Source of the DNA: a virus
Virus record (IMG/VR): IMGVR_UViG_3300027742_000002
Location: 1 to 48,910 of that record
Direction: 5' to 3' (one strand)
Length of the DNA stretch: 48,910 nt
The notes under the pieces: model-generated
Seen by the model: only the letters and a program-made list of their open reading frames with translations
Databases searched by the model: none
What the model was told of the DNA's origin: nothing
Program-made: the position numbers and the translations under genes
Shown: one piece after another, positions 7,676 through 48,910 of the stretch
How positions within the stretch are numbered: the stretch's first letter is position 1
Layout of the letters: the number at the start of each line of letters is the position of its first letter

Positions 7676-8520
7676 CACCACATGAAAATATTGAATTAGA
7701 GTATGTAATGGTAGGATTAAAACCACTTGCATCATTAGAAAAAGATAAACAACCAGATCAATTTGAACGCGCTTTGAAATTAAAGCATGTAGCAAGCGTT
7801 ATGCAACACGACGAGAATTTACTAACAGTAACCAGACGTGAAAATAGTCACTTGCACGAAGTGTTTAAATTACTATCTTCTGAAAGAGCATCAGTAATAG
7901 TTAGATCAGCAGAAGAAAAGCATAGACTACTAGGACGATTGTTCGGTTATTCAGAGACCGACATCGACGAGTTTATTGCAGCAGGGTTAGATTGCGCCTG
8001 TGGGCAGTGTGAGTGGAACAAGGAACCAGAAGAAACAACCAAAACCAAATTACCACAACTGTCAGGGAGAACACAGCAAATACTTATAGATTGGTGCGTA
8101 GATAACTTACTACCTATTCAACCTTTAGCAGAATATAATCCAGAGACCTTAGCGGCACTGAAGAAAGATAGAATGGATGGGGTAATATACGTATTTAGTG
8201 GAGGAAGTAAAAACAACATATTCACTAGCGATCTAGCAATACTATGTTTTAGAGCGTGGCATGACGAAATACATATAAAATACAACCTAGACTTCTCATT
8301 AGACCATGAGTTAATAGTAGCAGCCTTACACGATAAGGAAGCTATTGAAATGGGTATATCTAAAGAGGACGCAAAACTACTATCCTTAGACATTGAGCTT
8401 CATGTACGACACCTACATAAACACGGTGTACACCCAGAGTACCAAACTCAGATGTTGTCTGATTACATGGTCGTGGGTTTAGAGTGTCTCAATAATAACT
8501 ACGGATTAGTAGAGTGGTAG
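7666..8520 (+). CDS. Hypothetical protein (284 aa) between the primase and helicase genes
   Basis: This long ORF is overlap-coupled at both ends. I recognised no motif. Confidence 0.65.
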   Translation: MPIAPHENIELEYVMVGLKPLASLEKDKQPDQFERALKLKHVASVMQHDENLLTVTRRENSHLHEVFKLLSSERASVIVRSAEEKHRLLGRLFGYSETDIDEFIAAGLDCACGQCEWNKEPEETTKTKLPQLSGRTQQILIDWCVDNLLPIQPLAEYNPETLAALKKDRMDGVIYVFSGGSKNNIFTSDLAILCFRAWHDEIHIKYNLDFSLDHELIVAALHDKEAIEMGISKEDAKLLSLDIELHVRHLHKHGVHPEYQTQMLSDYMVVGLECLNNNYGLVEW

Positions 8521-12811: not shown

Positions 12812-13168
12812 ATGGATAACAAGACATTTACACAAGACGCATTACGAACAGAATCACCGCACTACTATCCTCAGAACACACGTATAACACACGCAGCATT
12901 TGGTTTAGTAACAGAAGCAGGTGAGTTATTAGACGCATTAAAAAAGTCAATGTTCTACGGGCGGGAACTAGATGTAACAAACATTAAAGAAGAGGCTGGT
13001 GACATTCTATGGTACTTAGCAATATTGTTTGATGAAATTGGTACTGATTTTGAAACAGAACAAGCCCGTGTAATCGCTAAACTACGAGCAAGGTTCCCAG
13101 AGAAGTTCACAGAGCGATCTGCGTTTGTACGTGACTTACCCAAAGAACGTCAAGTATTGGAGGAATAA
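12812..13168 (+). CDS. mazG: MazG-like nucleoside triphosphate pyrophosphohydrolase (118 aa)
   Basis: The metal-binding helices EAGELLDALKK and EEAGDILWYLAILFDEIG are present. Confidence 0.8.
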   Translation: MDNKTFTQDALRTESPHYYPQNTRITHAAFGLVTEAGELLDALKKSMFYGRELDVTNIKEEAGDILWYLAILFDEIGTDFETEQARVIAKLRARFPEKFTERSAFVRDLPKERQVLEE

Positions 13169-13515
13169 TGTTAGGTATAGTATACGCAGCAACCTATGCA
13201 CACGCAGAAATATTACGTAGAAAAGAATTACTAGAAAGACAGTACAGACAATACGTCACGGTATGTAGAAGTGTACAAATACCATATGTGACAAAGCAAG
13301 AATTTAAAGAAGCACAAGAAAGATTCAAAGAACACTCAGAGTTAAACATACCTACACCACAAGAAGCTGCAAGAATAGAGCAAAGACTATTCGCAAAACA
13401 TGAAGCCAAACGTAAGGAGTGGGAAAAGTATTCAGAGTACTTGTCAATTTGTAATACTATGGGTGTAGAGCCAATTAATAAAGAGCAATATGACTTAGCA
13501 CGAGGAGTATTATGA
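13168..13515 (+). CDS. Hypothetical protein (115 aa)
   Basis: The ORF is coupled to its neighbours (TAATG junction). Confidence 0.6.
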   Translation: MLGIVYAATYAHAEILRRKELLERQYRQYVTVCRSVQIPYVTKQEFKEAQERFKEHSELNIPTPQEAARIEQRLFAKHEAKRKEWEKYSEYLSICNTMGVEPINKEQYDLARGVL

Positions 13516-13907
13516 AACAAAGTTATTCAATACCAACAACAAAACACTTTAACCCAGTAAGTGACCCAAAGATGGTTTGTACTTGTTGTGGTGGGGGTGG
13601 ATTAAGTATTACCATATTGATTTTGTTAGAACTACTAAAACAACATTTCAACGGTAAAGCAGTAATAATCCACTCAGGAGCACGTTGTGCAAAACATAAC
13701 GCACAAGAAGGTGGTGCTAAAAACAGCGAACATAAGTTTACTGAGGAAGAACCACTAGTGGATGTAGCAGATATTCATATAGAAGGTGTATCGCCACAAG
13801 AACTGTATATGTTTGTTAAGTCTTTACCATTCGCAAACTTACTAGGGATTGGTAAATACAAAACATTCGTACATGTTGACACACGTGGCTATGCTGCGAG
13901 GTGGTAA
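13512..13907 (+). CDS. Peptidase M15 family (zinc D-Ala-D-Ala / L-Ala-D-Glu peptidase-like), candidate endolysin (131 aa)
   Basis: IIHSGARCAKHNAQEGGAKNSEH ... VDVADIHI ... FVHVDTR fits the M15A pattern SGyRC..hN...GG...S.H ... D ... HvD. Confidence 0.7.
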   Translation: MKQSYSIPTTKHFNPVSDPKMVCTCCGGGGLSITILILLELLKQHFNGKAVIIHSGARCAKHNAQEGGAKNSEHKFTEEEPLVDVADIHIEGVSPQELYMFVKSLPFANLLGIGKYKTFVHVDTRGYAARW

Positions 13908-20261: not shown

Positions 20262-20473
20262 TGGAAACTACAATAACAGGAAGAACACGCCATAGGCTAC
20301 AAAAACGGTTCATGGATACTACACTACTGGTACTACAGATAGAGAAAAGAACGCTAGGAGTAGACTATTCTCAAGATGTAGCCGGTGGTATCGGGAAAGA
20401 CATAGACTCAATTTCATGGTACGACGCTACCATAGAAGACTTACAAGAATTAAAAGGTATAGAAATTGATTAA
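20261..20473 (+). CDS. Hypothetical protein (70 aa)
   Basis: The ORF is coupled to its neighbours. Confidence 0.55.
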   Translation: METTITGRTRHRLQKRFMDTTLLVLQIEKRTLGVDYSQDVAGGIGKDIDSISWYDATIEDLQELKGIEID

Positions 20474-20852
20474 ACAACTTAAATCAAACCAAGTTGCCAG
20501 TGTACTTGATCAATTGGTTAAGAGACAAGGTAACAAATGTGCGATTTGTGGTAAGCCTTTTACAAAAGTGGATAAGCCAGTGTTAGACCATTGTCATTAC
20601 ACTGGTTTCATACGCGAAGCGGTACATAACTCTTGTAATGGGGCAGAGGGTAGAGTCAAGACAAAAGCACAACTAGGTCATAAAGGAGTACATGCGTATG
20701 ATTACCTTATTGGACTAGGTGAGTATTTAAGTAAGCACTCAAAACCACAAATAAATTTAATTCACCCAACGCATATGACACCAGAACAGAAGCGTATACA
20801 GAGAAACGCTAAGGCTCGTGCAGTACGTGCTAAGAAAAAGGTAAAACAGTAA
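20466..20852 (+). CDS. Endonuclease VII-type Holliday junction resolvase (128 aa, TTG start)
   Basis: CAICGKP...LDHCHYTGFIREAVHNSCNGAEGRV matches the T4 endonuclease VII zinc/H-N-H pattern. No in-frame ATG lies upstream of the motif. Confidence 0.8.
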   Translation: MIKQLKSNQVASVLDQLVKRQGNKCAICGKPFTKVDKPVLDHCHYTGFIREAVHNSCNGAEGRVKTKAQLGHKGVHAYDYLIGLGEYLSKHSKPQINLIHPTHMTPEQKRIQRNAKARAVRAKKKVKQ

Positions 20853-28543: not shown

Positions 28544-31072
28544 ATGAGAATAGAAAGTTCATACCCGACACCTATACACGGAGTTAGTACATTAGCGCCA
28601 CGTAATAGGGCAGAAGGACAAGCAGGATTACAAGTCAATTTCAGGTCAGACCCAGTTAATAAATTAACAAGGCGACCACCTATGAAGTGGGTTGCACCGT
28701 TATTACTAGGAAACACGGGGAGTGACATATTATACCACTCGTATGAACGAGAAGGTGTAACATACCGTTTTATATTAGACAAACTGACAGACGACTTACA
28801 CATCTATATAGATGATACATTATGGAATACTCTTACAGCACCAACAGGTTATGTAGGGAACAACATGGTGGCTCAAACTGTAGATCATGAAACATTCTTT
28901 ATAAATACAGACAAAGTAGTAGAAATGACTACTGATGATGATCTAGCAGACATAGAGCGAGTATCACACATTAACGTGGTGTCTGCATTAAACTATGGTG
29001 AAACAGTACAAGTAAATGTAACAACAAGTGATACTGTTAGACATGTAGTAACATACACAATACCAGATTTAGGGGTAACAAACCCAGATTATGATACAGC
29101 AGATAAGGCTCGTGCGACAAATCAAGTAGCATTAGAATTAGCAGCAAACATAAATGGTGGTGGTACTTACGATATAAGAGCACCAAATCCTGATTACCCA
29201 GATGATCCATTTATTGATGCGAACTTCATAAACTACTGCCAACCATATATAGATGATGGTTTTGGTGGCTGTATAGTAAACCCTAATTACGATGTATCTC
29301 AATCTGTATGTAAAGCGTATAAGACAGGTTACACAGGTATAACCGGAGTGACAGCAGTAGCACTAGGTTCCTCGGTAGCAGTTTGGGAAGATGGTAGAGC
29401 TGATTGGTTAGACCTAGAGATAGAAACAGGTCAAGGTGATAGATCATGTGTAGCAATAAATAACACTGTCGAGAACACAGAAGGCTTACCGTTGTACGCA
29501 GTAGTAGGCACACGAATAACTATTAAGCCCGACCCAACATCCGATAAAGGAACTTACTACCTACAAGCAGAACGAACAGCACAGCAAGTATCAGGTGAGT
29601 ACTTAGAAGAAGTTGTATGGTCAGAGACTAGAAACTCTGAACAACCACATGCTCTAGATACAACAACAATGCCGTTTAGTTGTGTATACGACAACAATGT
29701 ATTTACAGTTAATACAATAGCATTCAAAGAACGCCAAAATGGTGATGATGACTCTGTACCACAACCGGACTTCGTTGGTGAGACAATCACAAATGTAGGA
29801 TACTTCCAAAAGAGATTAGTATTCGTATCGGAGAATAACGTGATAATGTCTGAGGTAGATGATCCAGCAAACTTTTGGAAACAGTCGGCTGTACAACTAT
29901 TAGTTAATGACACAGTATCAGTAGCATCGAGTGCAGTAGCCATCGATAGACTAGCACACATAGTTCCTCATAATAGAGACCTATTAGTTATATCGTCTAA
30001 TGGTCAGTTTAAGATAGACGGATCAGAAGGTATAACACCGGAAACTGTATCAATGACACTTACTACAAAATACGAGTGTCAGGTAAACGTACCACCAGTA
30101 ACAATTGGTAACTCAATATTCTTCCCGATTGATTATGGAACGTCAACAGGATTACAAGAGTACACTGGTGAGAGGGATACTAACCAAGATTTTGCAGCAC
30201 CACTAACACATCATGTAATTGGATATATGTCTGGTAGTGTGAAGTTAATGACTGCAAGCCCTAACCTAGAAATGATAGCAGTTGTAACAGAAGGTGCAGC
30301 AGCTAATCAATTATTCATGTATGAGCAGTACACAGATGATACTGGGAAACGTCGGCAGAGATCATGGGGCCAGTGGGTTATATCAGGTAATTCTGAGATA
30401 TTAGACATCGAGTTCAGAAACGATAGATTAACACTTATTGTAAATGAACAAGGCAACATTATATTAAAAGAAATAGATATTTACTCCAGAGTTTCGACAG
30501 GAGTAAACGAAGTATACCTAGATGATTTAGTAAAGTTACCAACTGATGGAAGTACGGCAACATTAGATGCAGACTACGACACGAGTGACATAATTGTAAT
30601 TCGTGGAGATAGTACAGAGTATGAATTAAATAAAGTACAATTCACACTAGCTTCAAACGTAATAACATTCAATGAAGATATAGCAGTAGGTGATGTTTAC
30701 GTAGGAAAGTTATACGAATCAAGATACAGACCAACACGACCATTCAAATACGATGATAATAATATCGCAGTAACCACAGATAGAATACGTATAGCTAAGT
30801 TCATTTTAAGTTTAGTAGAAACAAATGAAGTTAAAATGCACATCATATCTGATTACTATGATACAGATGATCAAGAGTTTAACAGTAGGTATTTAGGAGG
30901 GTTGGACAACGTAGTTGGAAGTGTACCGTTTTACACAGGAGATCATAAGTTCTCGTTTGCACAAGATGCAAATTTAGCAGAAGCAGAGTTCTACTGTGAC
31001 AACTGGTTAGGATGTACAATCGCAGGAATAAGTTGGGAGGGGCAATACTTCCAAACAGCGCAGAGGATGTGA
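28544..31072 (+). CDS. Tail tubular protein B / nozzle (T7 gp12-like), 842 aa
   Basis: Size and position after the gp11-like gene fit. Confidence 0.75.
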   Translation: MRIESSYPTPIHGVSTLAPRNRAEGQAGLQVNFRSDPVNKLTRRPPMKWVAPLLLGNTGSDILYHSYEREGVTYRFILDKLTDDLHIYIDDTLWNTLTAPTGYVGNNMVAQTVDHETFFINTDKVVEMTTDDDLADIERVSHINVVSALNYGETVQVNVTTSDTVRHVVTYTIPDLGVTNPDYDTADKARATNQVALELAANINGGGTYDIRAPNPDYPDDPFIDANFINYCQPYIDDGFGGCIVNPNYDVSQSVCKAYKTGYTGITGVTAVALGSSVAVWEDGRADWLDLEIETGQGDRSCVAINNTVENTEGLPLYAVVGTRITIKPDPTSDKGTYYLQAERTAQQVSGEYLEEVVWSETRNSEQPHALDTTTMPFSCVYDNNVFTVNTIAFKERQNGDDDSVPQPDFVGETITNVGYFQKRLVFVSENNVIMSEVDDPANFWKQSAVQLLVNDTVSVASSAVAIDRLAHIVPHNRDLLVISSNGQFKIDGSEGITPETVSMTLTTKYECQVNVPPVTIGNSIFFPIDYGTSTGLQEYTGERDTNQDFAAPLTHHVIGYMSGSVKLMTASPNLEMIAVVTEGAAANQLFMYEQYTDDTGKRRQRSWGQWVISGNSEILDIEFRNDRLTLIVNEQGNIILKEIDIYSRVSTGVNEVYLDDLVKLPTDGSTATLDADYDTSDIIVIRGDSTEYELNKVQFTLASNVITFNEDIAVGDVYVGKLYESRYRPTRPFKYDDNNIAVTTDRIRIAKFILSLVETNEVKMHIISDYYDTDDQEFNSRYLGGLDNVVGSVPFYTGDHKFSFAQDANLAEAEFYCDNWLGCTIAGISWEGQYFQTAQRM

Positions 31073-31082
31073 GGAGAACAAT

Positions 31083-31619
31083 ATGTCAATGTACGCACAA
31101 GCTGCAATGTCTGGAATGTCAGCACTACAACTAATGGCGACAGGTGAGAACGCCCAGACCAAAGCAGCATATAATGAGGCTTACGCGATAGCAGCACAGA
31201 AGTCTAATATTAGAGAAGCTAAACACACAGCGGAGTTAAATATAGCTGCTATAAAGCAAGATAAGATTACATCCAACACACAAATCAGGATGGCCCAAGA
31301 CCAAGCGGAAGCAATGGCGTTAGTAAACGCAGCAGCCGCAGGGGTCGAGGGTGGATCAGTGGAAGATGTATTATATGAAACAGAGAAGAATGAAGCCTTC
31401 GCACTTAATAGTGCAAACCGGAAAGCAGAGCAAGCAACAGAGAGTCAACTAGCACAGATAGGGAGCCAAGCATCATCATTACTAGCTATACAAGAACCAG
31501 AGATTTCTTATGTAGGTGAGTTAATGTCGGCGTTTAGTTCGTTTGAATTAGGAGACTTAGAAATAGGTGAAGCACTATCATCGGAAGGTTACAGTTTACC
31601 AGCATTATGGGGAAGTTAA
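31083..31619 (+). CDS. Internal virion protein A (178 aa)
   Basis: Position fits. The protein is Ala-rich and helical (MSMYAQAAMSGMSALQLMATGENAQ...), as in phiKMV-group internal virion protein A. Confidence 0.6.
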   Translation: MSMYAQAAMSGMSALQLMATGENAQTKAAYNEAYAIAAQKSNIREAKHTAELNIAAIKQDKITSNTQIRMAQDQAEAMALVNAAAAGVEGGSVEDVLYETEKNEAFALNSANRKAEQATESQLAQIGSQASSLLAIQEPEISYVGELMSAFSSFELGDLEIGEALSSEGYSLPALWGS

Positions 31620-33887
31620 ATGACACAGTTTGGTTCACCGCAACGTAATGCAACGAGTGACGCTAATGCAGGGGTGGTTAATCCACCCGCTGTAAAGCAT
31701 ACACAGCGGCAAGTTGCAACAAAACAAAAGCAGGCTTCATCCCTAGATACTGGTGTAAACCAACTTGGTGAAGCATTAGGTGCAGCACTAGTAGAGAAAC
31801 TAGAGACAACAGCCACAAATATTAACGAACAACGTGCTACAGACGCAGCTATAAGACAGGGTACTGACCACGCTATAAACCAGATAGACGCTAATAAAAA
31901 GAATCTGGGGTGGGAGAAAGCAGTCTTTGGTGAGAATGTTGAATACAGAGCAGCACAGCAGAGAGCAGCACAGAACGCAGTTAACTCAGCGTATCTTGAA
32001 CAAGCATCAACATTAGATCAGTATGCAGGTGAAACACCGGAAGAGTACGCAGTAAAACTGAAAGAAGGGTTAGATAAAGTATTAGAACCTTATGGGGAAG
32101 ATGCCGAGACCAAGCGATTAGTAACTCAAGCGTGGATGGCATCAAGTGGAAAGTTAGCAGCTAAACAGTATGAAGCACACTACGCATACAATCAGCTACA
32201 ACAAAGAGACACCTATTCAAAGCAAGTTCAACAAACATTCGACACATGGACAGTAGACGCATCATTAGCAAGTACCCAAAAAGAAGCACAAGGATTACTA
32301 CAACAAGCATCTATATTCTTTGATAAAGGCACTAAGCCAGAAGGTATGACAGATTTCGCTTGGAAAGAAGTAGTTAATGAAAACCTTGTGAACTCTTTAC
32401 GGCAAGGTAACATCGGGGCGTATAATGCAGCTAAAGCAAACGGCTGGGTGGATGGTTTAACAATAGAAGAGCAAGTAGCAATAGATAAAGGTATAAGCGC
32501 GTATGATGCAGACTTTAATCGAGAAGCTCTATTAGTAGTAAGCGACACTCAGCTAGCAGCACTTGATGCTAAAAACCTGAATGACGCAGCAGCAATATAT
32601 CAAACAGCAATGGGTTCATTAAATACATTAGGATCACGTTCAAGTAAAACCGATAAAGCAGAGCATGATCTGAATAAAGCAAAACTTGCGTTAGACAGAT
32701 TAGCAAAGAAAGCTGCGGCAGATGGTTTAGAAGCAGAAGACGAACAAGCACGTATTGATAGAATTAAAGCAGGGTTACTAACTGACGATCCTATTGAGAG
32801 GGCTAGTGTATTAAACCAAGAGAATCCAAAGAAATCTGATTTGGAAGACATATTAGATGTAGTGGTTGTAGAAGAAATATCACGGCAAGCAGGTCAAGAC
32901 TTAAGTAATGCGGAAGCTACAAAAGTACTGCTTGAAAATCCTAAGATAGCAAAGTCGATAGCACGACGTATAGATGGACAAGAAGTAGATTCGTCATTTG
33001 TAAAGCGGTCAATAGAAACATTCATTAATGGATTTCAGGGCCTAGTAAACAACGAGGGTCAATTAAACGAACGTGGAATTGTGGCAATGCAGTCAGTAGC
33101 TCAATTTGAACAGAATGAAGATACATTCAAATCACTAATAGGTAATGATAACTACGATAGATACGAAATCATACGTAGAGGTATGTCAATAGGCCAAACC
33201 TCGGATATGGTGATGAAAGACTTAGACGCTTATTCAGCTAACAAAGGAAACCGTGACATATATGGGATTCAGTGGGAGTTAGGAGAAAACGAGTCTAAAC
33301 GAGATCGTATACAATCACTAATACAAGGCTTTACAGGGCAAGTTCCAAAAGGTGCATCATTAGCACACTATATGGAAGAATACGACAGAGCATTAGTTGT
33401 TTATAAAGGTGATAAGAAATCGGCGGAGAGTTACTTACGTAAGTCTGCTCTTAACGCAGCGATAAATTATAAAGGTCGTGTGATCACTAATGGTAAACAA
33501 TTAAACAAAGCGACAAAGTATAACTTTGAGCAGTTAATGGATGGAGCACAACAATCCAAAGGTACATCAGCAAGTATGCTAACCCCATATTTAGCAACAC
33601 TCGGTGTAAAATTGGAAGATAAAGATGGTAAACCCCTTACTAGGATTGACCAAGTAAGAGGACTGACTTTATCAACAATTGATGGTGTAGAGGGATTCTT
33701 TATGGATTCACAAGATGCACAAGCACCTGTACATATAACACCAGATGTAATGAAGAGGTGGGAACAAACACTTGACCAACGATCTAACTTTAAGAAATTA
33801 GAAGACAAAGCCAGCGAGACATTTCTTAACAACTGGATGAAAGAGCAGAAGAAACTACAAGCGGTTAAACCATTGTTGTTTCCGTAA
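31620..33887 (+). CDS. Internal virion protein B (gp15-like), 755 aa
   Basis: The call rests on position and size. The ATG abuts the upstream stop. Confidence 0.6.
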   Translation: MTQFGSPQRNATSDANAGVVNPPAVKHTQRQVATKQKQASSLDTGVNQLGEALGAALVEKLETTATNINEQRATDAAIRQGTDHAINQIDANKKNLGWEKAVFGENVEYRAAQQRAAQNAVNSAYLEQASTLDQYAGETPEEYAVKLKEGLDKVLEPYGEDAETKRLVTQAWMASSGKLAAKQYEAHYAYNQLQQRDTYSKQVQQTFDTWTVDASLASTQKEAQGLLQQASIFFDKGTKPEGMTDFAWKEVVNENLVNSLRQGNIGAYNAAKANGWVDGLTIEEQVAIDKGISAYDADFNREALLVVSDTQLAALDAKNLNDAAAIYQTAMGSLNTLGSRSSKTDKAEHDLNKAKLALDRLAKKAAADGLEAEDEQARIDRIKAGLLTDDPIERASVLNQENPKKSDLEDILDVVVVEEISRQAGQDLSNAEATKVLLENPKIAKSIARRIDGQEVDSSFVKRSIETFINGFQGLVNNEGQLNERGIVAMQSVAQFEQNEDTFKSLIGNDNYDRYEIIRRGMSIGQTSDMVMKDLDAYSANKGNRDIYGIQWELGENESKRDRIQSLIQGFTGQVPKGASLAHYMEEYDRALVVYKGDKKSAESYLRKSALNAAINYKGRVITNGKQLNKATKYNFEQLMDGAQQSKGTSASMLTPYLATLGVKLEDKDGKPLTRIDQVRGLTLSTIDGVEGFFMDSQDAQAPVHITPDVMKRWEQTLDQRSNFKKLEDKASETFLNNWMKEQKKLQAVKPLLFP

Positions 33888-33916
33888 TAATAAATAGAGG
33901 AACAGAGGAGTACTTT

Positions 33917-36900
33917 ATGTCAGATATACAACGTGTAATTGATGGTGACACAGTAAAGACCACTGACGACACGTTGCGTGTCGGTTATATAAATACGCCA
34001 GAATCCGTACATCCTAATGAAGACTTAAACACACCACAAGGTGATGCAGCAACAGACTTCGCTAAAGATGTATTACCAGAAGGTAAGCCTGTAGCAACAC
34101 ATGACTATGGTCGTGATCATTTTGGAAGGCAGGTATCAGGTGTAAACCGTGTAATTGATGGTGTAGAAGTTGACTACGGCCTTGTTGCTTTAGATCAGCA
34201 AATGTCTACATACTACACAGAATATGGTGAGCACCCAGACCCGTTAAAGCATGATGAATATAAAGAGTACTATAGTAGACATGTACCGTATCAGTTTGGT
34301 ACAGCAGAACAACCGTTAACAAAAGAACAATTTGATACTGTTACTGCTAAACACGAGCGATTCAACAACACGTACACAGCATTCAAAGAAGGTGATGCAA
34401 CACAAGAAGAGTTTGATAAAGCAACAGCAGATTTATACGGTGATCCAGATATGGTGATGCGTTATCGTCACCAGTTATCAGCTTGGAACAGACCTATTGA
34501 AATGGAGAGTAGTGATACACTTCGTGGATCAATGCGGATAGCTATGGAAGACCCAGCTATCAGAGAGCAATACAATCGGACTGTGCGTAACGGGCATTTG
34601 ATGGACAGTCCTATACCAGAGAAAGAAGCAACATTCTGGGAAAAGATGAGTACATCATTCTCAATGTTAGGTAGTGCATCAAATTTAGCTGATATGGAAA
34701 TGTTATGGGATTCTCGTAGACTAGGAACTGATTTTGATGTACCTCAAGAAGAATTAACAAAAGGTCTACCAGAGCAATACCACGCAACTATATTAGCAGA
34801 AGCATCTAAGTACAACGATCAGTCAGCTATTATGTTACGTGATCAATTGATGGATGATATTCAGAACAATCGTGTATTTGAAAACATGGAGTGGTATGCA
34901 CAGTTAGGTTATGGGGCAGCATCAATAATAGTAGACCCTTTAACACTATTGACAGCAGGGCCAGTAATTAAAACTAGCCAAAGTATTAATGCAGGTGTAA
35001 AACTTTGGACATCCAATAGGCTAATTAGGAACACAGCACTAATGGGAACATGGGCCGCTGGAGGTGGTTTAGAAGGTGCAGCAATAAACACTCCAAGACT
35101 AGCTGGTGATCACACATACACAGCGAAAGACTATCAACTAGATATTCTAGTGGACGCGGGATTCGGATTAGGACTTGGTGGTTTAGTAGAGTACGCAGGA
35201 AAACCTCTGTACCAGCGTTATGTGAAAGACGCAAGAAGATCGCGGGAATTAGAACGTGAACAAATACAAAACCATGTAGAACAGCAAGGACAACCAGAAG
35301 CGGCAGCAACACCAGAACTACAAGAAGTTAAAGAACAGGTAAATGTAGAGACCGCAGAAAGTAGAACAAGAAGTAAAGTAGAACAAACTACAGGTACTAC
35401 GTTCACACCGTGGGAAGCTATAACACAAATAAGTCCAGAAGGATTCGCGTCAGCAGCAAGTACACTAGCAGATGTGTTTCAACAAGGTACAGCAATTCGT
35501 AAATTGTTAAATAGTCAAATTGGGCTTAATAATAAAAGCTTATCACCAGAGGCTAGAGTAATAGCAAATGAACTTAACTCAGACATACTACATTTAGCGT
35601 CAGCGTTTCCAGATGGTAAAGTACCTCCGTCAATAGAGAAGTCGATAGAAGCCGTAACATTCAGACAAAAGACGTTTAATAGAAAGAACGCCATGTCTGA
35701 CTTGCTACAAGGAGACACTGCTAACCCAGTACAAACTCTACAAAATTATGTACAAATGTTACGTAATCAGAAAGAGCTATGGGATGGGTATGATACTACA
35801 CCAATGAGTAGTAAAGACTTCTTTGCACACCAGTCAGATTGGATGTCAATACAAGGTAAAACTAGTGCAGATGATGTATTTAGTTTAACAACACAGATAC
35901 CAAAAGAATTATCATATCTGAAAGATGTTGTAGAACTAAATAGAATGGCAGCTAAGAAAGACAGTGCTGAATTCACAAGTGCTGTAGAAGAGTTAAACGG
36001 GTTAGTAGCAACTCGTATGGAGCAGAAGGAGTACGGTGACTTTAATCCGTATAGTGATAGTTCCAAACAGTTCGGTAAGACAGTACCAATGTCACCGCAG
36101 GAGATTGCAGCACAACTTAAAAAAGAAGGGCTGACACCGAAGACATCAGAGTATAGCACTAGGTTGGCAGAACTACGTCAACATGGTCGGGTAGCAGTAG
36201 GGGAGGAAGTTAATAGAGTAGGTAGAATAGATGAAGTCGAGGTTGGTAAAACTCGTACAGAGCAAGACCCTGACAGCCCAGACTACTACTCAGTAGACGA
36301 CGCTAAACAGGAACTATTCAAACTACAAAGTAAACCTGATCCAACACCAGACGATATAGCTAGGTCTAAAGAATTACTTAACACAATTGAGCAGGCTAAG
36401 AAGTCAAAAGAGACTACTCTCGTAAGAGATACATCAGAGCAAGACTTACTACCAAGATCATACACTAATACTACAACACAACAGGCGTATAAGAATCCAA
36501 GTGTTGAAACTTTAACAGAGTTAAAAAACCGACTTAATAAAGACATCATACGTAAGTTAGGTGTTAAAACTATAAAGGGTAAAGCCGAGCATAAAAGTCA
36601 AACACAGAGATTAGAAGTAGTTAAGAAAGCTTTGTTAAAAAATAAAGCCAAAGTGATGGATAGGATGGTTAAAGCTGGCCAGTGGCAGAATGTTGAGGAT
36701 GTTATAAGGGCATCACACGCAATTGCAGAACAGCAGAAACTAGCTCCGAAAGGTGATATAGAAACTAAAGTAGATACTCCGCTAACTGAGGACGAATTAA
36801 CTATCTTGTCTGATGGGAACTCTGGAGAAACAACTACGAAAGTATCTACGGAAGACTACACCAACATTCAAAGTAAGGCTAATAAAGCTTATGAGAAAAT

Positions 36901-39202
36901 GGTAGAAGATTCATTAGAAGGTGTTAATACCGGACTTACTAACTTTGTTAAATCGGGTGAAAAGAAAGCATTTGCATTAGCTAGGAAACCAAAAGGTATA
37001 TTAGATAGTGTAGGACGTATTGCAGCAAGAATCACAGAAGACTTAGGTACTAAATTCCAAAACGGTAAGATGACATCATTAGAATATATTGGGTCAAGGA
37101 TTACTGAGATCGGTAGAGGATACGGTGGAGCAATTCGTCGTAAAGCTACAGGCGGTATAATACGCGATACAGTATATAAAGAATCAATGATGCAGATAGC
37201 ACCAGCCTATGTGAAAGCAATGGACTCGTACGCAATATCGAAAGGTAAAACAGCCGTAGGGCGTATGAATGCTCAACAAAAGGCTGGAGCAGATAGTAAG
37301 ATAGTTGCTCAATTCAACCGAGAAGTATTCTTAATACAGGAGTACAGACGACAAGGGAAAGAACTACCAAGTAACCTAGATAAGTCAGTAATAGACTTCG
37401 TTAGTCAATGGGATAAATACATGGACTACAATCACGGTAAACTAGTAGAGTCTAACATCGGGGGATTTACTAAAGCACGTAAAGTAAAACACTATGTTCC
37501 ACATGTATGGCAATCGGGTAGATTACTGGCTGCTGTAAACAAACATGGTGAAGCTAAAGTAGAAGAGTTATTCACAAGGGCGTATCAGTCGTCAACAACT
37601 AATGGTGTAAACCCAACAGATGTATCAAAAGCTAGGGAACTAGCGAAGAGGCAGATCGATTGGATTAGACAGCAAGGAGAAGAACCGACTGATCAGTTTC
37701 TACCAGTATCAGATAGTAGGGCGAAACAACGACTTGACTTAGATACGACGATGGAATTTGAAGGTTTGTCTATACTAGATTTACTAGATAATGAAGTTAT
37801 GAGTGTAGCAACTAAATACTCAAACCGTATGGCTGGCTGGGTAGGATTATCAAAATCAACAGACGGTATGTTGACATCACAATTGGACATTGATTCATTG
37901 AAGAAGAATATGATCCAAGAAGGTATTGATAAAAACATTAATACAAAGAAGTACGAACAGTACTACGACGACTTAATGAACTTGATGTTTGGTAGACCAA
38001 CACGTGGTGGATTAACACAGGAAATGCGTCAGTTAAAAGACTTAACAGCATTAACACGTATGGGTGGTTTAGGAACAGCACAGTTAATCGAAACAGGCCA
38101 AGTAATATCACGGTCAGTACTTAGTACATTTAGTTCAGAACCAGTAGCCAAGAAGGTCATAAAATTAGGTGGAAAAGTAGAGAATGAGCGAGAGCTAATA
38201 AGGGAAATTCAATCAATCTCCAACGTAACAGACGACTTGGAATGGCTCGATAGGCAGAGCGTTCATTTAGACCAAGCGGAACTAGCAAAAGTGCATAAAG
38301 CAAGACAGATGTCTCTATGGTTAGCTGACAAAGCAACCTTTGGATCATTGAAGGCACCAGCTAGTAGGTTGTTAGGAAAAACAACAGGATACAACGCAAT
38401 TCGTAGAGCGCAATCCAGAGTAACTCAAGCAAGTTTTGTACTTGATGTAGCTAAACACTTTAACTCCGGTACAGGCAAGATGGGTAATGCTCGTATGGCC
38501 GATGTAGGTTTAACAGACGCTAACGGAGTAGATACTGAACTACAAGATGTATTTAAAAATATTGTTGAGTACGGTGACGATGGATTACCGACGAAACTAA
38601 ATGTAGATAAGTGGCCTAGCTCAGCACGAGAAAAGTTCCAGTACGCATTAATACGTGATGAAGCGCAGCAGATTCAACGTACACATGTAGGAGAACTACC
38701 ACCGTGGATGAACAGACCAATGATGGCTTTAATCTTCCAATTTAGGCAGATGCCAATAGTCGCTAATAACAAACAGTTAAGTAGATCATTAGCATTCGCA
38801 GATAAGGAAGCAGTAACAGCTACATTATTAAACACAGCTATGTCGGGATTAGTACGATACAGCAAGTTCGCGGCACTAGGGACAGGCGCAGCCGCAATAA
38901 CGAGTAGTGATTGGAAAGAGCCAAATGAAGGTCAAATGCAAGTTGATAAATACATAACTCAATTTGGTATATTCCCAGACGCAAAAGATATAGTACTAGA
39001 TGCGTACCAAGCAGGAACGACAGGAGACTATCGTCAACTACAAGGACAAATACCTGTTATGGGACTAATGAAGGACTACTACGACTCTGGGTTCGGAGAT
39101 AAACGAGAACAGATAGAAGCAGCACAGGGATTAGTCCCATTAGGAAACACTGCGTATGGAGATATGATTCACACGTGGATTAAAGAAACATTTGAAGATT
39201 AA
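33917..39202 (+). CDS. Internal virion / ejection protein C (gp16-like), 1761 aa, with an N-terminal staphylococcal-nuclease-like domain
   Basis: It is the giant ORF in the gp16 position. The N-terminus VIDGDTVK..LRVGYINTPESVHP..QGDAATDFAKD..DHFGRQVSGV..VDYGLVALDQ aligns with SNase AIDGDTVK..FRLLLVDTPETKHP..YGPEASAFTKK..DKYGRGLAYI..VNEALVRQGLA. Confidence 0.75.
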   Translation: MSDIQRVIDGDTVKTTDDTLRVGYINTPESVHPNEDLNTPQGDAATDFAKDVLPEGKPVATHDYGRDHFGRQVSGVNRVIDGVEVDYGLVALDQQMSTYYTEYGEHPDPLKHDEYKEYYSRHVPYQFGTAEQPLTKEQFDTVTAKHERFNNTYTAFKEGDATQEEFDKATADLYGDPDMVMRYRHQLSAWNRPIEMESSDTLRGSMRIAMEDPAIREQYNRTVRNGHLMDSPIPEKEATFWEKMSTSFSMLGSASNLADMEMLWDSRRLGTDFDVPQEELTKGLPEQYHATILAEASKYNDQSAIMLRDQLMDDIQNNRVFENMEWYAQLGYGAASIIVDPLTLLTAGPVIKTSQSINAGVKLWTSNRLIRNTALMGTWAAGGGLEGAAINTPRLAGDHTYTAKDYQLDILVDAGFGLGLGGLVEYAGKPLYQRYVKDARRSRELEREQIQNHVEQQGQPEAAATPELQEVKEQVNVETAESRTRSKVEQTTGTTFTPWEAITQISPEGFASAASTLADVFQQGTAIRKLLNSQIGLNNKSLSPEARVIANELNSDILHLASAFPDGKVPPSIEKSIEAVTFRQKTFNRKNAMSDLLQGDTANPVQTLQNYVQMLRNQKELWDGYDTTPMSSKDFFAHQSDWMSIQGKTSADDVFSLTTQIPKELSYLKDVVELNRMAAKKDSAEFTSAVEELNGLVATRMEQKEYGDFNPYSDSSKQFGKTVPMSPQEIAAQLKKEGLTPKTSEYSTRLAELRQHGRVAVGEEVNRVGRIDEVEVGKTRTEQDPDSPDYYSVDDAKQELFKLQSKPDPTPDDIARSKELLNTIEQAKKSKETTLVRDTSEQDLLPRSYTNTTTQQAYKNPSVETLTELKNRLNKDIIRKLGVKTIKGKAEHKSQTQRLEVVKKALLKNKAKVMDRMVKAGQWQNVEDVIRASHAIAEQQKLAPKGDIETKVDTPLTEDELTILSDGNSGETTTKVSTEDYTNIQSKANKAYEKMVEDSLEGVNTGLTNFVKSGEKKAFALARKPKGILDSVGRIAARITEDLGTKFQNGKMTSLEYIGSRITEIGRGYGGAIRRKATGGIIRDTVYKESMMQIAPAYVKAMDSYAISKGKTAVGRMNAQQKAGADSKIVAQFNREVFLIQEYRRQGKELPSNLDKSVIDFVSQWDKYMDYNHGKLVESNIGGFTKARKVKHYVPHVWQSGRLLAAVNKHGEAKVEELFTRAYQSSTTNGVNPTDVSKARELAKRQIDWIRQQGEEPTDQFLPVSDSRAKQRLDLDTTMEFEGLSILDLLDNEVMSVATKYSNRMAGWVGLSKSTDGMLTSQLDIDSLKKNMIQEGIDKNINTKKYEQYYDDLMNLMFGRPTRGGLTQEMRQLKDLTALTRMGGLGTAQLIETGQVISRSVLSTFSSEPVAKKVIKLGGKVENERELIREIQSISNVTDDLEWLDRQSVHLDQAELAKVHKARQMSLWLADKATFGSLKAPASRLLGKTTGYNAIRRAQSRVTQASFVLDVAKHFNSGTGKMGNARMADVGLTDANGVDTELQDVFKNIVEYGDDGLPTKLNVDKWPSSAREKFQYALIRDEAQQIQRTHVGELPPWMNRPMMALIFQFRQMPIVANNKQLSRSLAFADKEAVTATLLNTAMSGLVRYSKFAALGTGAAAITSSDWKEPNEGQMQVDKYITQFGIFPDAKDIVLDAYQAGTTGDYRQLQGQIPVMGLMKDYYDSGFGDKREQIEAAQGLVPLGNTAYGDMIHTWIKETFED

Positions 39203-39223: not shown

Positions 39224-39784
39224 ATGGCACAGACCATACGTACAAATGTAGGAGACGGTGTACAAACTCTCTATCCGGTATCATTCGACTTAGGATACGT
39301 ATCAAGAGATTATGTGTACGTATATACTGGGGACGATTATACAGTACAGTTAGACTATGTATGGATAAGCGACTCTCAAATAGAACTAAGTACTCCCGTT
39401 GCAATAGGTATAGAGTTCTACATTAGGCGGGTAGTACCGAGAAATGTACCATTCAATGATTACGAAGATGGCGCAATACTAAGGGAATCAAACTTAGATG
39501 ATTCATTCGTACAAGCGTTGATGATTAATGAAGAATTAAGTGATGGATTTGCAGACCCTACGACACCAGAGAAACAATTTATACTAAACACTGGTGACGA
39601 AATGATTGGGCCATTAAGTGGGGTAGACTCAACGGAGCCAGAACACTTTATGCCACAGCTACAAGTAACGAACACAATCGATGCTAGAATGGCATCAGCA
39701 CCAGAGTTTGATCCAAATAACTTTCAAGATTACGGATTAGTAACTGAGGACGTAAGTGACTCACTAGACTACGGAGGTATATAG
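39224..39784 (+). CDS. Tail fibre adaptor (T7 gp17 N-terminal domain-like), 186 aa
   Basis: MAQTIRTNVGDGVQTLYPVSFDLGYVSRDYVYVY resembles the gp17 N-terminal tail-attachment domain. The ORF is short and no receptor-binding part is attached. Confidence 0.6.
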   Translation: MAQTIRTNVGDGVQTLYPVSFDLGYVSRDYVYVYTGDDYTVQLDYVWISDSQIELSTPVAIGIEFYIRRVVPRNVPFNDYEDGAILRESNLDDSFVQALMINEELSDGFADPTTPEKQFILNTGDEMIGPLSGVDSTEPEHFMPQLQVTNTIDARMASAPEFDPNNFQDYGLVTEDVSDSLDYGGI

Positions 39785-39785
39785 G

Positions 39786-41474
39786 ATGTCATTACAAGTA
39801 AAACACCGTAGGGGAACAACCGCTGAGATAGAAGCATTCACACCGGCGGTGGGTGAGTTCATAATGGACACACAAACTAAGAGCCTAGTGCTGGGTGATG
39901 GTACGAAGCAGGGAGGACATAGACAGGTAACAAGAGCAGATATAGTAAATAATCTATCGACACTACCAATAGCAAAAGCGCAAGATTTGGAGATAGGAGA
40001 CCTTATTACTACTTCTGGGTATGTGACTCTCGGAGACGGGGGTGGTGCCACTTACAGAGTGGTGGCAGCTAGAGAAGTAGACGGATTTGCTGACCATCTA
40101 ATGGACAATGGATTAGTATTAGAACTTCACCTAGATGGATACATAGTCAATATAAGGAAATTTGGGGCTAATGAAACTACGGATGCGTCACCATCAATAC
40201 AAGCAGCTATCAATTATACGCTAGTCCTCGGAGGAGAACTATATTCACCGAGAGGCGCGTATCCGGTGGAGGATGAGGTAGTGGTAGATGTTAGGGGGAT
40301 AACTGGAGCACCTAATAGCAATCAACGTAGACTATCACTACGTGGCGCAGGTAAAGGCAACACCGTGTGGCTGGCTAAAACTGACAGCCAGACAATCTTA
40401 CATTTCATTGGAGACAACCCTACAACTACAGCAAGCCACGCATATACTGAATTTGCGGACATCAGCTTTGGGGGAGCAACGCCAACATCGAGAACAGCAG
40501 AGGGATTACGGTTAGAAGATTTGGCATACTTCACGCTACGTAATGTGAGTTTCCATAACCTAAATGCTTGCTTAAACAATATTGCATGTTTGAGTTCAAC
40601 ATTCTACACATGTGATTTTAATGAATCAGTTAAAGGGATAGTGGCACAACAAGCTACTGGTGCTAGTGACCCAAACGCTAATTCATACTACGGTTGTAAC
40701 TTCAGACTACTTACAAAAATGGCTTATGATGGCTTCGGTGGCATGGCTAATGGACTATTTTCTGGCTGTAACTTTGAGGGTAATGGAACTTTTGGTGACG
40801 ATACAACAGGTGCAGTGAATCTTCGGATAGACGCATCGGCGGGTGAAGTTGGCCCTGTATTTGAAAGTTGCTACTTCGAGAGTAATAGAGGCGGATTCGA
40901 TCTTCAGGTAGCATCAACAGGAGGTAGACGAATAACGGCAAACCTAACAGGTGTCAATTTTAACAGGGTGTCTGGTGCTTCGTATACAACAAACAATATA
41001 AGAACTTCAGGTAAATTAAACCTTAACACAGTAGGCTGTGCGTTCACGCCGTACAACGACTATGTTCCAAATATTAGTAGGTTATGTATACTTCCAAACA
41101 ATTCATGTAGGCACGTAGATGTAGGATCGACGTTTTATAGTAGCGTAGATATTCCAACCAATCTTGCAAGTACTGTATTTGCGGGTGACGTGACGGGAGA
41201 GGATGCTGGAGCTTTTGGGGCATCTAGTTATATATTACCTGCTGGGTGGTCAGCTACACGTACTGCCGCTGGTCACTACACGGTTATTCATAATCTAGGC
41301 CATACTAATTATTCTATAACTGCTACTTCAAACGGCACGTTTCAGAGATCGGTGGAACGATGTATTAAAGCAGCAAACTCTTTTCAGATACGTACAGTAG
41401 CAGGTGGTACTTTGACGCTAGCAGATTGTAATACAACATTTACGTTGAGCGCATTTCAACCAAGCATATCGTGA
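39786..41474 (+). CDS. Tailspike 1, probable beta-helix depolymerase (562 aa)
   Basis: It has the conserved N-terminal anchor KHRRGTTAEIEAFTPAVGE...GDGTKQGG. Pectate-lyase-like GYVTLGDGGGATYRVV is present. The body is rich in Gly, Asn and Thr repeats. Confidence 0.7.
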   Translation: MSLQVKHRRGTTAEIEAFTPAVGEFIMDTQTKSLVLGDGTKQGGHRQVTRADIVNNLSTLPIAKAQDLEIGDLITTSGYVTLGDGGGATYRVVAAREVDGFADHLMDNGLVLELHLDGYIVNIRKFGANETTDASPSIQAAINYTLVLGGELYSPRGAYPVEDEVVVDVRGITGAPNSNQRRLSLRGAGKGNTVWLAKTDSQTILHFIGDNPTTTASHAYTEFADISFGGATPTSRTAEGLRLEDLAYFTLRNVSFHNLNACLNNIACLSSTFYTCDFNESVKGIVAQQATGASDPNANSYYGCNFRLLTKMAYDGFGGMANGLFSGCNFEGNGTFGDDTTGAVNLRIDASAGEVGPVFESCYFESNRGGFDLQVASTGGRRITANLTGVNFNRVSGASYTTNNIRTSGKLNLNTVGCAFTPYNDYVPNISRLCILPNNSCRHVDVGSTFYSSVDIPTNLASTVFAGDVTGEDAGAFGASSYILPAGWSATRTAAGHYTVIHNLGHTNYSITATSNGTFQRSVERCIKAANSFQIRTVAGGTLTLADCNTTFTLSAFQPSIS

Positions 41475-41521
41475 TATTGCTATCATTGTACAAGTAGAAA
41501 CTAGATATAGGGAATAACATT

Positions 41522-43648
41522 ATGGCAACAGAAATTAAACATAGGCGAGGAACAACCGCTGAGATAGAAGCATTCACTCCAGCTATGGCTGAGCTAGTAG
41601 TAGATGTAGAGACCAACGAACTAGTAGTTGGAGATGGCTCTAAACAAGGGGGCTACCGTACACCTACGGTAGTCACTAGCTTGAGGAAGTTTGAGACAAA
41701 AGCTGACTTAGTGGCGGCTACTTACCTACAAGCAGGTACGCGAGTTGAGACAGAAGGTTACACTGCGGAAGGGGATGACGGGGCAGCCAGATACTTAGTC
41801 AAGACATCTGCACAAGCGACAATAGATAGCGACATCATTGATGAAGTAGTTAACCACACATTAGCTAACGGTAATGTTGTGGTGATAAAAACACAAACAC
41901 TACTATTCAAGCAGTGCGGGTTCTTCGGTTTAGGTACATCAGCAGACACACAAAACTTGATAAAAGGGATAGAGTGGGCATCAGCTAATAAGCGGATGAT
42001 CAAAGCTAACGAAGCTGAGGTACTGGAAACAGTAGCTACGATAAGTACATTTGATGAGGCGAGTGCAACAGTACTTGCTACCCTACCTATACTAAGCGGT
42101 ATGAATGTAGACCTTAACGGGGCTACGTTAAAGATGGCAGATGGGCAATCATCAAACGGTACTCCAACCCACCTACGAATGTTCTTCTCAAACGAGTTTC
42201 AATCCAACATATGGCTGAAGCATGGGATAATCGATAACAACGGTGATAATAACCTAATAAATGGTGGTACTCTAACACAAGCCATGTTTGGGTTCTCTGG
42301 ATCAGCAGCGGGAGGAACAGACGTAGCGAGAGGTAATAATGTTCGTATACACGACGTAGAATTCAACAACAACGCAGGTGTCTCATGTATATTAATGGCA
42401 CAATCAAACACTACGTCTGCATTGCTAGGTAAAGACTGGAAAATCACACAGTGTAAATTCAAAGAGAATGGTAAAGACACACAAGACCATTCGAGCATTT
42501 ACGGATGGGCGACAGATGTAACAGTAGATGATTGTTTATTTGAGACGGCTGCACCATTCGACTCAACTGCACTACTCGGAGGTAGAGTAGCATACGAAGT
42601 ACACGGCTCTGGTCATAAGTTTATAAACAACACTATTAAGAACTATTATCAAGGTGTGTGGGTAGCAGCGAATTTTACTGATTCGTTAGTTGAAGGGACA
42701 CTAATAAAAGGTAACAACTTTGAAGTAACACAAACAGCAGTTGATTTCTACAACCAAAACATAGGTGGTGGTAACCCCAATACAGGATTGCTGGATAGAA
42801 CTCGTATATTGGGAAATGATATAGTACTACTAGATGAACCAACAAATGACGGATACAAGGCTTGTGTAAGACTAACATCAAAGAAAGGTTCTAGTAGAAT
42901 CTTGTTTGCAAACAACGAATGCAGAAGTTTAGAAACAACGGATTCTTCTTGTCTATTCTTGATTGTAAATCAAAGTGACCAACTAACAACTCACGATAAG
43001 ATTAAAGTATCTAACAACCAAGGGTCAGGGCTAACAGCAGGTTTAGTCGTCTATATGGGTGGTTCAGGTGGATCATTTGATATAGGTAACGTAGTATACA
43101 CAGACAACGATATATACCCTCTGATAGCTAGAGACGGTACATTTCAGACGAAAGATGTATACATTTACGGAGCTAAAGCAGGGAACATAACTGACCTAGA
43201 GGTGTCAGGAATGCGCTACGGATTGCAAAATGCGTCAGCATTAGGCACACTACGACTACGTGGGATAGCAGACAACGTACCATTAACAGGAACATTCGAC
43301 AATGTAACTGTAGGTAACGGTACAGTGACAACAAGAGTCACATTGAACACATACCAAGGTATCGCAACAGTACACGCAAAACTAGTTGCAGGAACTACAA
43401 CTAGCATCGGAGGAAACATGCTCGCACGGTTCACAGGGTTAACAGCAACTAACAATAGTGTTGGTAGTGGTTTTGTTAAATCCGGTGCAAACATCCACCA
43501 GATCAGCGGTAGAATAGATAATACTGGTAGTTGGGTAACAATGTTTAATGACAGTGGTAACGTAAACGGAACAAACCCAGTAACAGTGGCAAGTGGTGAT
43601 GTATACGAAGTGTCTAGTAATTTCCATTGTAGCTCAATAACATTATAA
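41522..43648 (+). CDS. Tailspike 2, probable beta-helix depolymerase (708 aa)
   Basis: It has the same N-terminal anchor, KHRRGTTAEIEAFTPAMAE...GDGSKQGG. GYTAEGDDGAARYLV is present. The body differs from that of tailspike 1. Confidence 0.7.
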   Translation: MATEIKHRRGTTAEIEAFTPAMAELVVDVETNELVVGDGSKQGGYRTPTVVTSLRKFETKADLVAATYLQAGTRVETEGYTAEGDDGAARYLVKTSAQATIDSDIIDEVVNHTLANGNVVVIKTQTLLFKQCGFFGLGTSADTQNLIKGIEWASANKRMIKANEAEVLETVATISTFDEASATVLATLPILSGMNVDLNGATLKMADGQSSNGTPTHLRMFFSNEFQSNIWLKHGIIDNNGDNNLINGGTLTQAMFGFSGSAAGGTDVARGNNVRIHDVEFNNNAGVSCILMAQSNTTSALLGKDWKITQCKFKENGKDTQDHSSIYGWATDVTVDDCLFETAAPFDSTALLGGRVAYEVHGSGHKFINNTIKNYYQGVWVAANFTDSLVEGTLIKGNNFEVTQTAVDFYNQNIGGGNPNTGLLDRTRILGNDIVLLDEPTNDGYKACVRLTSKKGSSRILFANNECRSLETTDSSCLFLIVNQSDQLTTHDKIKVSNNQGSGLTAGLVVYMGGSGGSFDIGNVVYTDNDIYPLIARDGTFQTKDVYIYGAKAGNITDLEVSGMRYGLQNASALGTLRLRGIADNVPLTGTFDNVTVGNGTVTTRVTLNTYQGIATVHAKLVAGTTTSIGGNMLARFTGLTATNNSVGSGFVKSGANIHQISGRIDNTGSWVTMFNDSGNVNGTNPVTVASGDVYEVSSNFHCSSITL

Positions 43649-48811: not shown

Positions 48812-48910
48812 TACCCGCAATTAGTAATAAAATCGCGGTAGAAACACTAATAACAAGTAATAGTAAATAACAACAAGTAGTACACAAATGTAATGATTGT
48901 TAAACCAAAT
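48812..48910. repeat. Right copy of the 99-bp direct terminal redundancy, identical to 1..99
   Basis: The match to the first 99 bases of the window is exact. Confidence 0.9.

Follow-up and report, generated by a model that had tools for sequence, protein, structure and literature searches.

What does a phage deliver into its host when one of its ejection proteins begins with a domain that resembles staphylococcal nuclease (SNase)? The question is raised by one gene in a stretch of viral DNA, IMG/VR record IMGVR_UViG_3300027742_000002, which was analysed over its whole length of 48,910 nucleotides and is called the window here. The gene (33917–39202, + strand) encodes a gp16-like internal virion (ejection) protein of 1761 aa, as defined by the open reading frame (ORF) call and by matches to phrog_37474 and phrog_342. 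A first-pass annotation, made from the DNA letters alone, had proposed an SNase fold in about the first 100 residues (33917–34216). The present analysis indicates that residues 1–120 (33917–34276, +) almost certainly form a true domain of the staphylococcal nuclease (thermonuclease) superfamily, by fold as well as by homology. The phage probably carries this nuclease, along with its genome, into the envelope of the host.

Results

Fold and homology of the N-terminal domain

The translation of 33917–34216 quoted in the first-pass annotation was read exactly the same on re-translation. The N-terminus alone matched Pfam PF00565 with an E value of 0.0023 and 18.8 bits, for a gathering score of 21. 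A phmmer search of the single sequence against the PDB gave an E value of about 1e-3 and placed query residues 6–95 on SNase residues 16–109. The N-terminus was also matched by the PHROG family phrog_452 'endonuclease' (E=3.4e-8) and by the NCBIfam thermonuclease NucI (E=1.7e-8). An exhaustive HMMER search over 1.84 billion representative proteins gave 299 matches at E<=1e-3. The best of these were giant proteins of 1171–2378 aa with the domain at the N-terminus, and the ordinary SNase homologues of 150–350 aa ranked after them. The motif pairs on which the fold had first been recognised (VIDGDTV/AIDGDTV, LRVGY/FRLLL, INTPES/VDTPET and FGRQVSGV/YGRGLAYI) were reproduced by HMMER.

Family-level evidence carries the assignment. 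Alignment A1 consists of 21 homologous N-termini that are 26–70% identical to that of the window. The A1 profile matched the PDB staphylococcal nuclease chains with an E value of 1.6e-11, and 12 of the 21 members individually matched Pfam SNase (best E=1.6e-9). The Pfam check on residues 1–120 that had been suggested earlier was thus borne out by the family members and not by the single sequence, which stayed under the threshold. An AlphaFold2 model computed from A1 had a predicted local distance difference test score (pLDDT) of 85.7, above 90 across most of residues 1–100, and a predicted template modelling score (pTM) of 0.76. Strands were located at residues 2–22 and 58–86, and helices at 40–52, 87–93 and 109–118, in agreement with the five-stranded OB-type barrel and three helices that characterise the superfamily. 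In a Foldseek comparison with the PDB, the top 50 entries were all staphylococcal nuclease (probability 1.00, TM 0.54–0.66, root mean square deviation about 3 Å), so that the predicted structure pairs with the fold named in the first-pass annotation. The match is therefore far beyond chance. The domain takes in the counterparts of SNase helices 2 and 3. Its location is as first described, but its end lies at about residue 120 (position 34276) rather than at about residue 100.

Active site and conservation

The catalytic-site codons were placed on the + strand by alignment to SNase. They are D9 (33941–33943), D11 (33947–33949), R21 (33977–33979), N26 (33992–33994) at the SNase Asp40 position, T27, E29 (34001–34003), R71 (34127–34129) and Y99 (34211–34213). 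Seven columns, D9, D11, R21, E29, G42, R71 and Y99, are invariant in all 21 sequences of A1. Six of them (all except G42) align with D19, D21, R35, E43, R87 and Y115 of SNase. D9, D11, R21, E29 and R71 are unchanged even in the members with 26% identity, whereas neighbouring positions vary. In SNase, Arg35, Arg87 and Glu43 together with bound calcium are the catalytic elements (PMC8436206).

Two positions depart from the reference enzyme, namely Asn for Asp40 and Phe for Tyr85, and the first-pass annotation had suggested that they may reduce activity. This was not supported. Among 17 large homologues, the Asp40 position is Asp in nine, Asn in seven and Ala in one. Among 133 small SNase homologues, sampled with a bias towards the query, 86 have Asp there and 44 have Asn. 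Phe stands at the Tyr85 position in 11 of the 17 large and 18 of the 133 small homologues. Both are common variants. The residue at the Asp40 position even flips among close relatives: it is Asp in P0001 (71% identical) and P0003, and Asn in P0002 and in Alteromonas phage R8W. In two distant members, P0021 and P0040, it is Ala or Gly. The calcium ligands of SNase are Asp21, Asp40 and the carbonyl of Thr41, and Asn is able to ligate calcium through its oxygen. Asp19 and Thr22 are neighbours of this site and not ligands; the earlier description of Asp19, Asp21 and Thr22 as calcium-binding is right for Asp21 only. Judging from these alignments, Asn and Phe appear to be tolerated natural variants and not signs of decay, and the active site of the domain appears intact.

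The relatives (about 55–70% amino-acid identity) are too divergent for the ratio of nonsynonymous to synonymous substitutions (dN/dS), and selection was judged by amino-acid identity per segment. The SNase segment is 39–75% identical to 14 full-length homologues. This equals the identity of the C-terminal core; the middle of the protein is less conserved, with 11–49% identity among the same homologues. The segment can therefore be read as being under purifying selection on a working active site.

The nearest well-known enzyme is nuclease A of Staphylococcus aureus (PDB 1stn, 1ey0 and 1snc). It shares the fold and the residues D19, D21, R35, E43, R87 and Y115. The overall identity is, however, about 22–25%, and the two substitutions discussed above set the window domain apart. 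Nuclease A is also a free, secreted enzyme with an isoelectric point (pI) of 9.5, whereas the window domain has a pI of 4.4 and is fused to a 1640-aa virion protein.

The ejection-protein backbone

The ATG at 33917 is the first start codon past an in-frame stop at 33866–33868, and a ribosome-binding site, GAGGAG (33905–33910, +), lies 6 nt 5' of it. Therefore, the protein starts directly with the SNase domain. The whole protein matched phrog_37474 with an E value of 0 in the PHROG scan, a family labelled 'unknown function'. Residues 237–1751 matched phrog_342, 'internal virion protein with endolysin domain', with an E value of 1.3e-73. The gene order in the PHROG and Pfam results is nozzle, gp14-like, gp15-like and gp16-like, followed by tail-fibre and tail-spike genes. 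The nozzle gene (28544–31072, +) encodes tail tubular protein B of 842 aa (phrog_457, E=3.5e-170). It is followed by the gp14-like internal virion protein of 178 aa (31083–31619, +; Pfam T7_gp14 PF24072, E=8.9e-10; phrog_805) and the gp15-like internal virion protein of 755 aa (31620–33887, +; phrog_3883, E=1e-9). Because of the phrog_342 match and the position after these three genes, the residues past the SNase domain are assigned, on homology and synteny, to a T7 gp16-type ejection protein. The fusion of an SNase fold to the N-terminus of a gp16-like protein is thus upheld by profiles, predicted structure and synteny, which agree.

Between the SNase domain and the phrog_342 region lies a linker with a helical region, residues 121–235 (34277–34621, +), recognised by its conservation in the clade and by low pLDDT at residues 121–135. 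In the alignment, this part is specific to the SNase-bearing clade and holds a nearly invariant motif, P124-Y125-x-x-G128. It may be a counterpart of the 'molecular tape' of T7 gp16. A Kyte–Doolittle scan found two hydrophobic, glycine-rich segments. Segment 1, residues 327–354 (YAQLGYGAASIIVDPLTLLTAGPVIKTS; 34895–34978, +), reaches a maximum of 1.53 and is a candidate membrane-inserting segment. Segment 2 covers residues 406–428 (YQLDILVDAGFGLGLGGLVEYAG; 35132–35200, +). Both hydrophobic segments are C-terminal to the SNase domain.

Distribution of the fusion

The gene had no megablast match among 50,697 phage records. Therefore, the phage is new at the DNA level. By tblastn, 170 phage records were matched, most of them annotated as internal virion proteins. 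In these 50,697 deposited genomes, three divergent queries located the fusion only in Alteromonas phages vB_AmeP_R8W and vB_AspP-H4/4, which belong to Foturvirus, Autographiviridae. The gp43/gp44 of R8W and gp39/gp40 of H4/4 are orthologues of the window protein, with 54.5% identity over the full length and about 69% in the SNase domain. Both proteins are annotated only as 'putative internal virion protein', and the nuclease domain is not mentioned in either genome paper.

Metagenomic sequences contain the fusion more widely. An N-terminal SNase domain on a giant protein was present in at least 15 protein clusters at 50% identity, with lengths of 1171–2378 aa. In IMG/VR, five loci (L008, L009, L011, L012 and L013) have the SNase domain at residue 1 of ORFs of 1254–2250 aa. 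These loci were found with a 7-sequence alignment; a single N-terminus used as query gave one poor locus, L004. A separate search for protein homologues with the N-terminus gave a single match, P0001. It is a fragment of the same kind of protein, from a contig at 2x coverage, with a weak precomputed Pfam SNase match. The next-nearest relatives of the backbone are Vibrio phages phiV141, JSF7 and the K437b group. Their alignment starts at about residue 236, and phiV141 has only about 64 aa N-terminal of the point that matches this residue. Because the Vibrio phage homologues align only from there, the SNase domain and its 115-aa linker are regarded, on this comparison, as an addition confined to this marine clade.

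The window protein has no protein name, and neither have its metagenomic relatives. A0A6J5NQ80, a protein of 1342 aa from an uncultured phage, has the automatic label 'SNase-like, OB-fold'. In full-text literature searches, no paper was found that connects staphylococcal nuclease or thermonuclease with ejection proteins or internal virion proteins. Searches for nuclease domains of ejection proteins or for virion-associated nucleases gave irrelevant matches only, and the main review of the ejection-protein field does not contain the word 'nuclease' (PMC8954989). The SNase domain on a gp16-type protein is detectable by automatic annotation, yet it is neither described nor studied. The enzyme family and the ejection-protein backbone are both known; what is new is their combination.

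Canonical SNase domains were also seen in large phage proteins whose backbones are unrelated to gp16. They lie at residues 64–193 of P0029 (1828 aa; L041, 8001–13487), at residues 645–755 of P0062 (839 aa; L042, 6110–8629) and in the middle of phrog_8809, a profile of 2317 positions. A PHROG scan of the neighbours of P0029 in L041 and of P0062 in L042 gave zero matches. Among the other genes of L042 are those for DNA hypermodification, a thymidylate synthase and aGPT-Pplase3/ADDT. The fusion of an SNase domain to a large phage protein may have happened several times.

Lysozyme modules and wall hydrolases

In T7, the corresponding N-terminal position is occupied by a wall-degrading enzyme, and the question arises whether the SNase domain has simply taken its place. 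The closest relatives answer differently. In both R8W and H4/4, a lysozyme ORF of about 160 aa lies immediately upstream of the SNase-ejection protein, whereas the window has no such module. It is a separate ORF in R8W; in H4/4, a -1 frameshift has been proposed to connect it with the SNase-ejection protein (PMC5658483). In both isolates, the lysozyme ORF ends with CCA GTA AAA AAG TAG, which contains the classic -1 slippery heptamer A_AAA_AAG (7974–7980 in the H4/4 locus L002 and 7962–7968 in the R8W locus L001). R8W has the heptamer plus an ATG. The SNase N-terminus of H4/4 has no start codon of its own, and it could therefore be made only via the proposed frameshift. L006 encodes an in-frame fusion of lysozyme, SNase domain and ejection protein (1967 aa). 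In P0002 and L012, the same type of lysozyme is C-terminal instead, and P0021 has a different lysozyme-like end at its C-terminus. An ejection protein with a C-terminal lysozyme domain is known from phiKMV-type phages. It resembles the present proteins in having a modular enzymatic domain, and P0002 and L012 combine such a lysozyme with the N-terminal SNase domain; however, the cargo of the phiKMV-type protein is muralytic and not nucleolytic. In the closest relatives, the SNase domain thus coexists with a lysozyme that is placed either upstream or at the C-terminus. The SNase domain is the constant module and lysozyme the movable one, and the former does not simply substitute for a muralytic domain.

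No muralytic domain was found by Pfam or PHROGs in the gp14-, gp15- and gp16-like proteins of the window, as the first-pass annotation had also stated. A possible remnant of the R8W lysozyme in the gp15-like ORF (32121–32462, +; tblastn E=0.017, 25% identity over 118 aa, no Pfam match) was rejected as probably due to chance; no other trace of a wall-degrading domain was seen in the internal proteins. The N-terminal peptidoglycan-hydrolase domain of gp16-type proteins is phage-specific and not universal (PMC8954989). The only muralytic domain recognised in the window is in a Peptidase_M15_3 protein, a probable endolysin, at 13512–13907 (+; Pfam PF08291, E=1.1e-13). Among the matches listed, its closest relatives are Vibrio phage endolysins with about 40% identity, and none is from an Alteromonas phage. 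The window phage seems to have swapped the lysozyme-type lysin seen in R8W and H4/4 for an M15 peptidase. It has no recognisable wall hydrolase in the virion.

Genome context

The window contains the complete genome of a marine T7-like phage, with 48,811 bp of unique sequence and a GC content of 40.6%. Positions 1–99 are repeated exactly at 48812–48910. This 99-nt repeat is not a terminal repeat of biological origin but the overlap of a circularised metagenomic assembly, typical of k=99. The direct terminal repeat of H4/4 is 217 bp (PMC5658483). The replication region contains genes for a MazG-type nucleotide pyrophosphohydrolase (12812–13168, +) and for endonuclease VII (20466–20852, +). The latter means that DNA-metabolism nucleases are encoded separately from the SNase domain.

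Downstream of the gp16-like gene, a 186-aa protein (39224–39784, +) matched only the N-terminal adaptor part of T7-type tail fibres. Two large proteins (39786–41474 and 41522–43648, +) follow, each starting with an Mtd_N domain. One of them had a weak pectate-lyase-like match to PF12708 (E=5.5e-6, 26.8 bits, for a gathering score of 27). The genes of 39224–43648 look like a dual receptor-binding-protein system such as that reported for R8W.

Discussion

A possible mechanism is suggested by T7. Residues 1–156 of T7 gp16 are a transglycosylase, an enzyme that the first-pass annotation had also placed at the N-terminus, and form periplasmic 'wings' on the gp15 tunnel (PMC8954989). They are followed by the 'molecular tape', and two putative transmembrane regions lie between gp16-N and gp16-C. 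The DNA-binding C-terminal domain extends into the cytoplasm (PMC8954989). The window protein is like T7 gp16 in being giant, in following gp14- and gp15-like genes, and in having an N-terminal enzyme domain, two hydrophobic segments and a conserved C-terminal part, and the two are homologous via phrog_342. It differs in that its enzyme is an SNase domain and that no muralytic domain is recognised in it.

On this basis, the protein would be part of the internal virion core, along with the gp14- and gp15-like proteins, and would be expelled through the tail at infection. Residues 327–354 and 406–428 and the conserved C-terminal part would make up the portion of the DNA conduit that lies in the inner membrane and the cytoplasm. 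The SNase domain would stay in the periplasm, where T7 gp16 has its wings. In a calcium-rich periplasm equilibrated with seawater, it would act as a calcium-dependent phosphodiesterase and attack DNA or RNA outside the shelter of the conduit. Foreign or competing unshielded nucleic acid would be its likeliest substrate. We consider the whole chain, a calcium-dependent nuclease of the virion core that is released with the ejectosome and placed on the periplasmic side, to be rather probable.

The periplasmic site is suggested by several observations. The N-terminal part of T7 gp16 is periplasmic, and the hydrophobic segments of the window protein are C-terminal to its SNase domain. In L006 and H4/4, moreover, the lysozyme must reach the peptidoglycan and is joined to the SNase domain by a short linker. 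Enzymes of the SNase family are typically secreted or extracytoplasmic and need roughly millimolar calcium. Such levels are found in seawater and therefore in the periplasm of marine hosts, but not in the cytoplasm, where free calcium is sub-micromolar.

Several points weigh against a periplasmic nuclease. The window sequence alone scores under the Pfam gathering score. An active non-specific nuclease beside the genome in calcium-rich seawater should be dangerous, and no mechanism that would restrain the packaged nuclease is visible in the sequence. To our knowledge, there is no obvious nucleic-acid substrate in the periplasm. The domain is acidic (net charge -14), which may mean weak DNA binding or a different substrate. 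Finally, because of the C-terminal lysozyme of P0002 and L012, the topology of T7 may not transfer, and the N-terminus could reach the cytoplasm.

This last point leads to the alternative that survives best, in which the SNase domain, threaded through the conduit or forming the leading part of gp16, reaches the cytoplasm before the genome does. There it would cut DNA or RNA of the host, or nucleic acids involved in defence, much as an injected effector would. The seemingly intact active site and the strong conservation of the module would suit such an effector equally, and an ejected enzyme, the virion RNA polymerase of N4, does reach the cytoplasm. Related SNase genes in SPbeta-type phages are annotated as 'chromosome degrading nuclease'. 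YokF of SPbeta, the phi3T nuclease of that annotation and the thermonucleases of phrog_452 and phrog_20876 are phage members of the SNase family, with about 35% identity over residues 4–90. However, these free-standing enzymes are small, often have a signal peptide or lipoprotein anchor, and are not virion components. The low free calcium of the cytoplasm also argues against an SNase-type enzyme acting there, the T7 N-terminal domain was seen in the periplasmic tunnel (PMC8954989), and the incoming DNA of the phage itself would be exposed to the same enzyme. A cytoplasmic effector is thus conceivable but, in our judgement, unlikely. A role in conflict rather than entry appears similarly doubtful. 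In that case, an active nuclease, exposed on the periplasmic side of the ejectosome or injected for a short time, would act just as infection takes place. It would destroy nucleic acid that belongs to competing phages or to mobile elements, or defence signals that consist of nucleic acid.

Less likely again is a non-catalytic module, whose SNase/OB fold would bind nucleic acid or protein and, for example, hold the genome end or dock on gp15. The OB fold is a general binding scaffold, and the inactive SN domains of eukaryotic Tudor-SN serve as binding modules. The acidity of the domain, the hazard of a live nuclease beside the genome, and the replacement of Asp40 by Asn here and by Ala or Gly in P0021 and P0040 would all fit a binding role. 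However, five catalytic residues are invariant in the 21 sequences of A1 while their neighbours vary. A pure binder is not expected to keep D21, R35, E43 and R87 together, and Asn can still serve as a calcium ligand.

It is very improbable that the domain works in the producing cell, where newly made, unassembled protein would degrade nucleic acid of the host at a late stage of infection and its presence in virions would be incidental. T7-like phages do recycle host DNA, and the fusion would tie the dosage of the nuclease to late gene expression. However, the genome has dedicated DNA-metabolism nucleases such as endonuclease VII, and the calcium limitation of the cytoplasm applies here too. 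The persistent N-terminal fusion to one virion protein across a deep clade suggests a role linked to ejection. An artefact, whether a motif match due to chance or a separate nuclease gene that an error of assembly or a frameshift error has joined to gp16, might be suspected from the single-sequence Pfam score and the metagenome-style assembly with its 99-nt end overlap, but it is refuted, as nearly as can be said, by the HMMER search, the A1 profile, Foldseek and the IMG/VR loci, since profile, structure and catalytic-site evidence agree, the same uninterrupted ORF occurs in many independent contigs and two isolate genomes, and conservation crosses the junction.

Significance

The ejection proteins of short-tailed phages carry wall-cutting domains, and the giant protein of N4 carries an RNA polymerase. 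Other enzymes delivered from phage heads are T4 Alt and the MuF-fused polymorphic toxins. In concept, the SNase-ejection protein resembles all of these as a capsid-packaged enzyme expelled with the DNA, although the folds and activities differ. A nuclease cargo on this class of ejection protein has not previously been described. Since the domain is also present in R8W and H4/4, which can be cultivated, the question is directly testable. If the role in conflict is true, no nuclease effector would have been described before this one on an ejection protein of a podovirus, and it would imply a mechanism that spares the co-packaged genome. If the domain is active, it would add one more kind of enzyme to those that phages deliver ahead of their DNA, and it would pose the puzzle of how a non-specific nuclease is silenced beside densely packed DNA in calcium-rich seawater. 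An active domain would also make a role in conflict between phages, or between phage and defence, plausible in the ocean.

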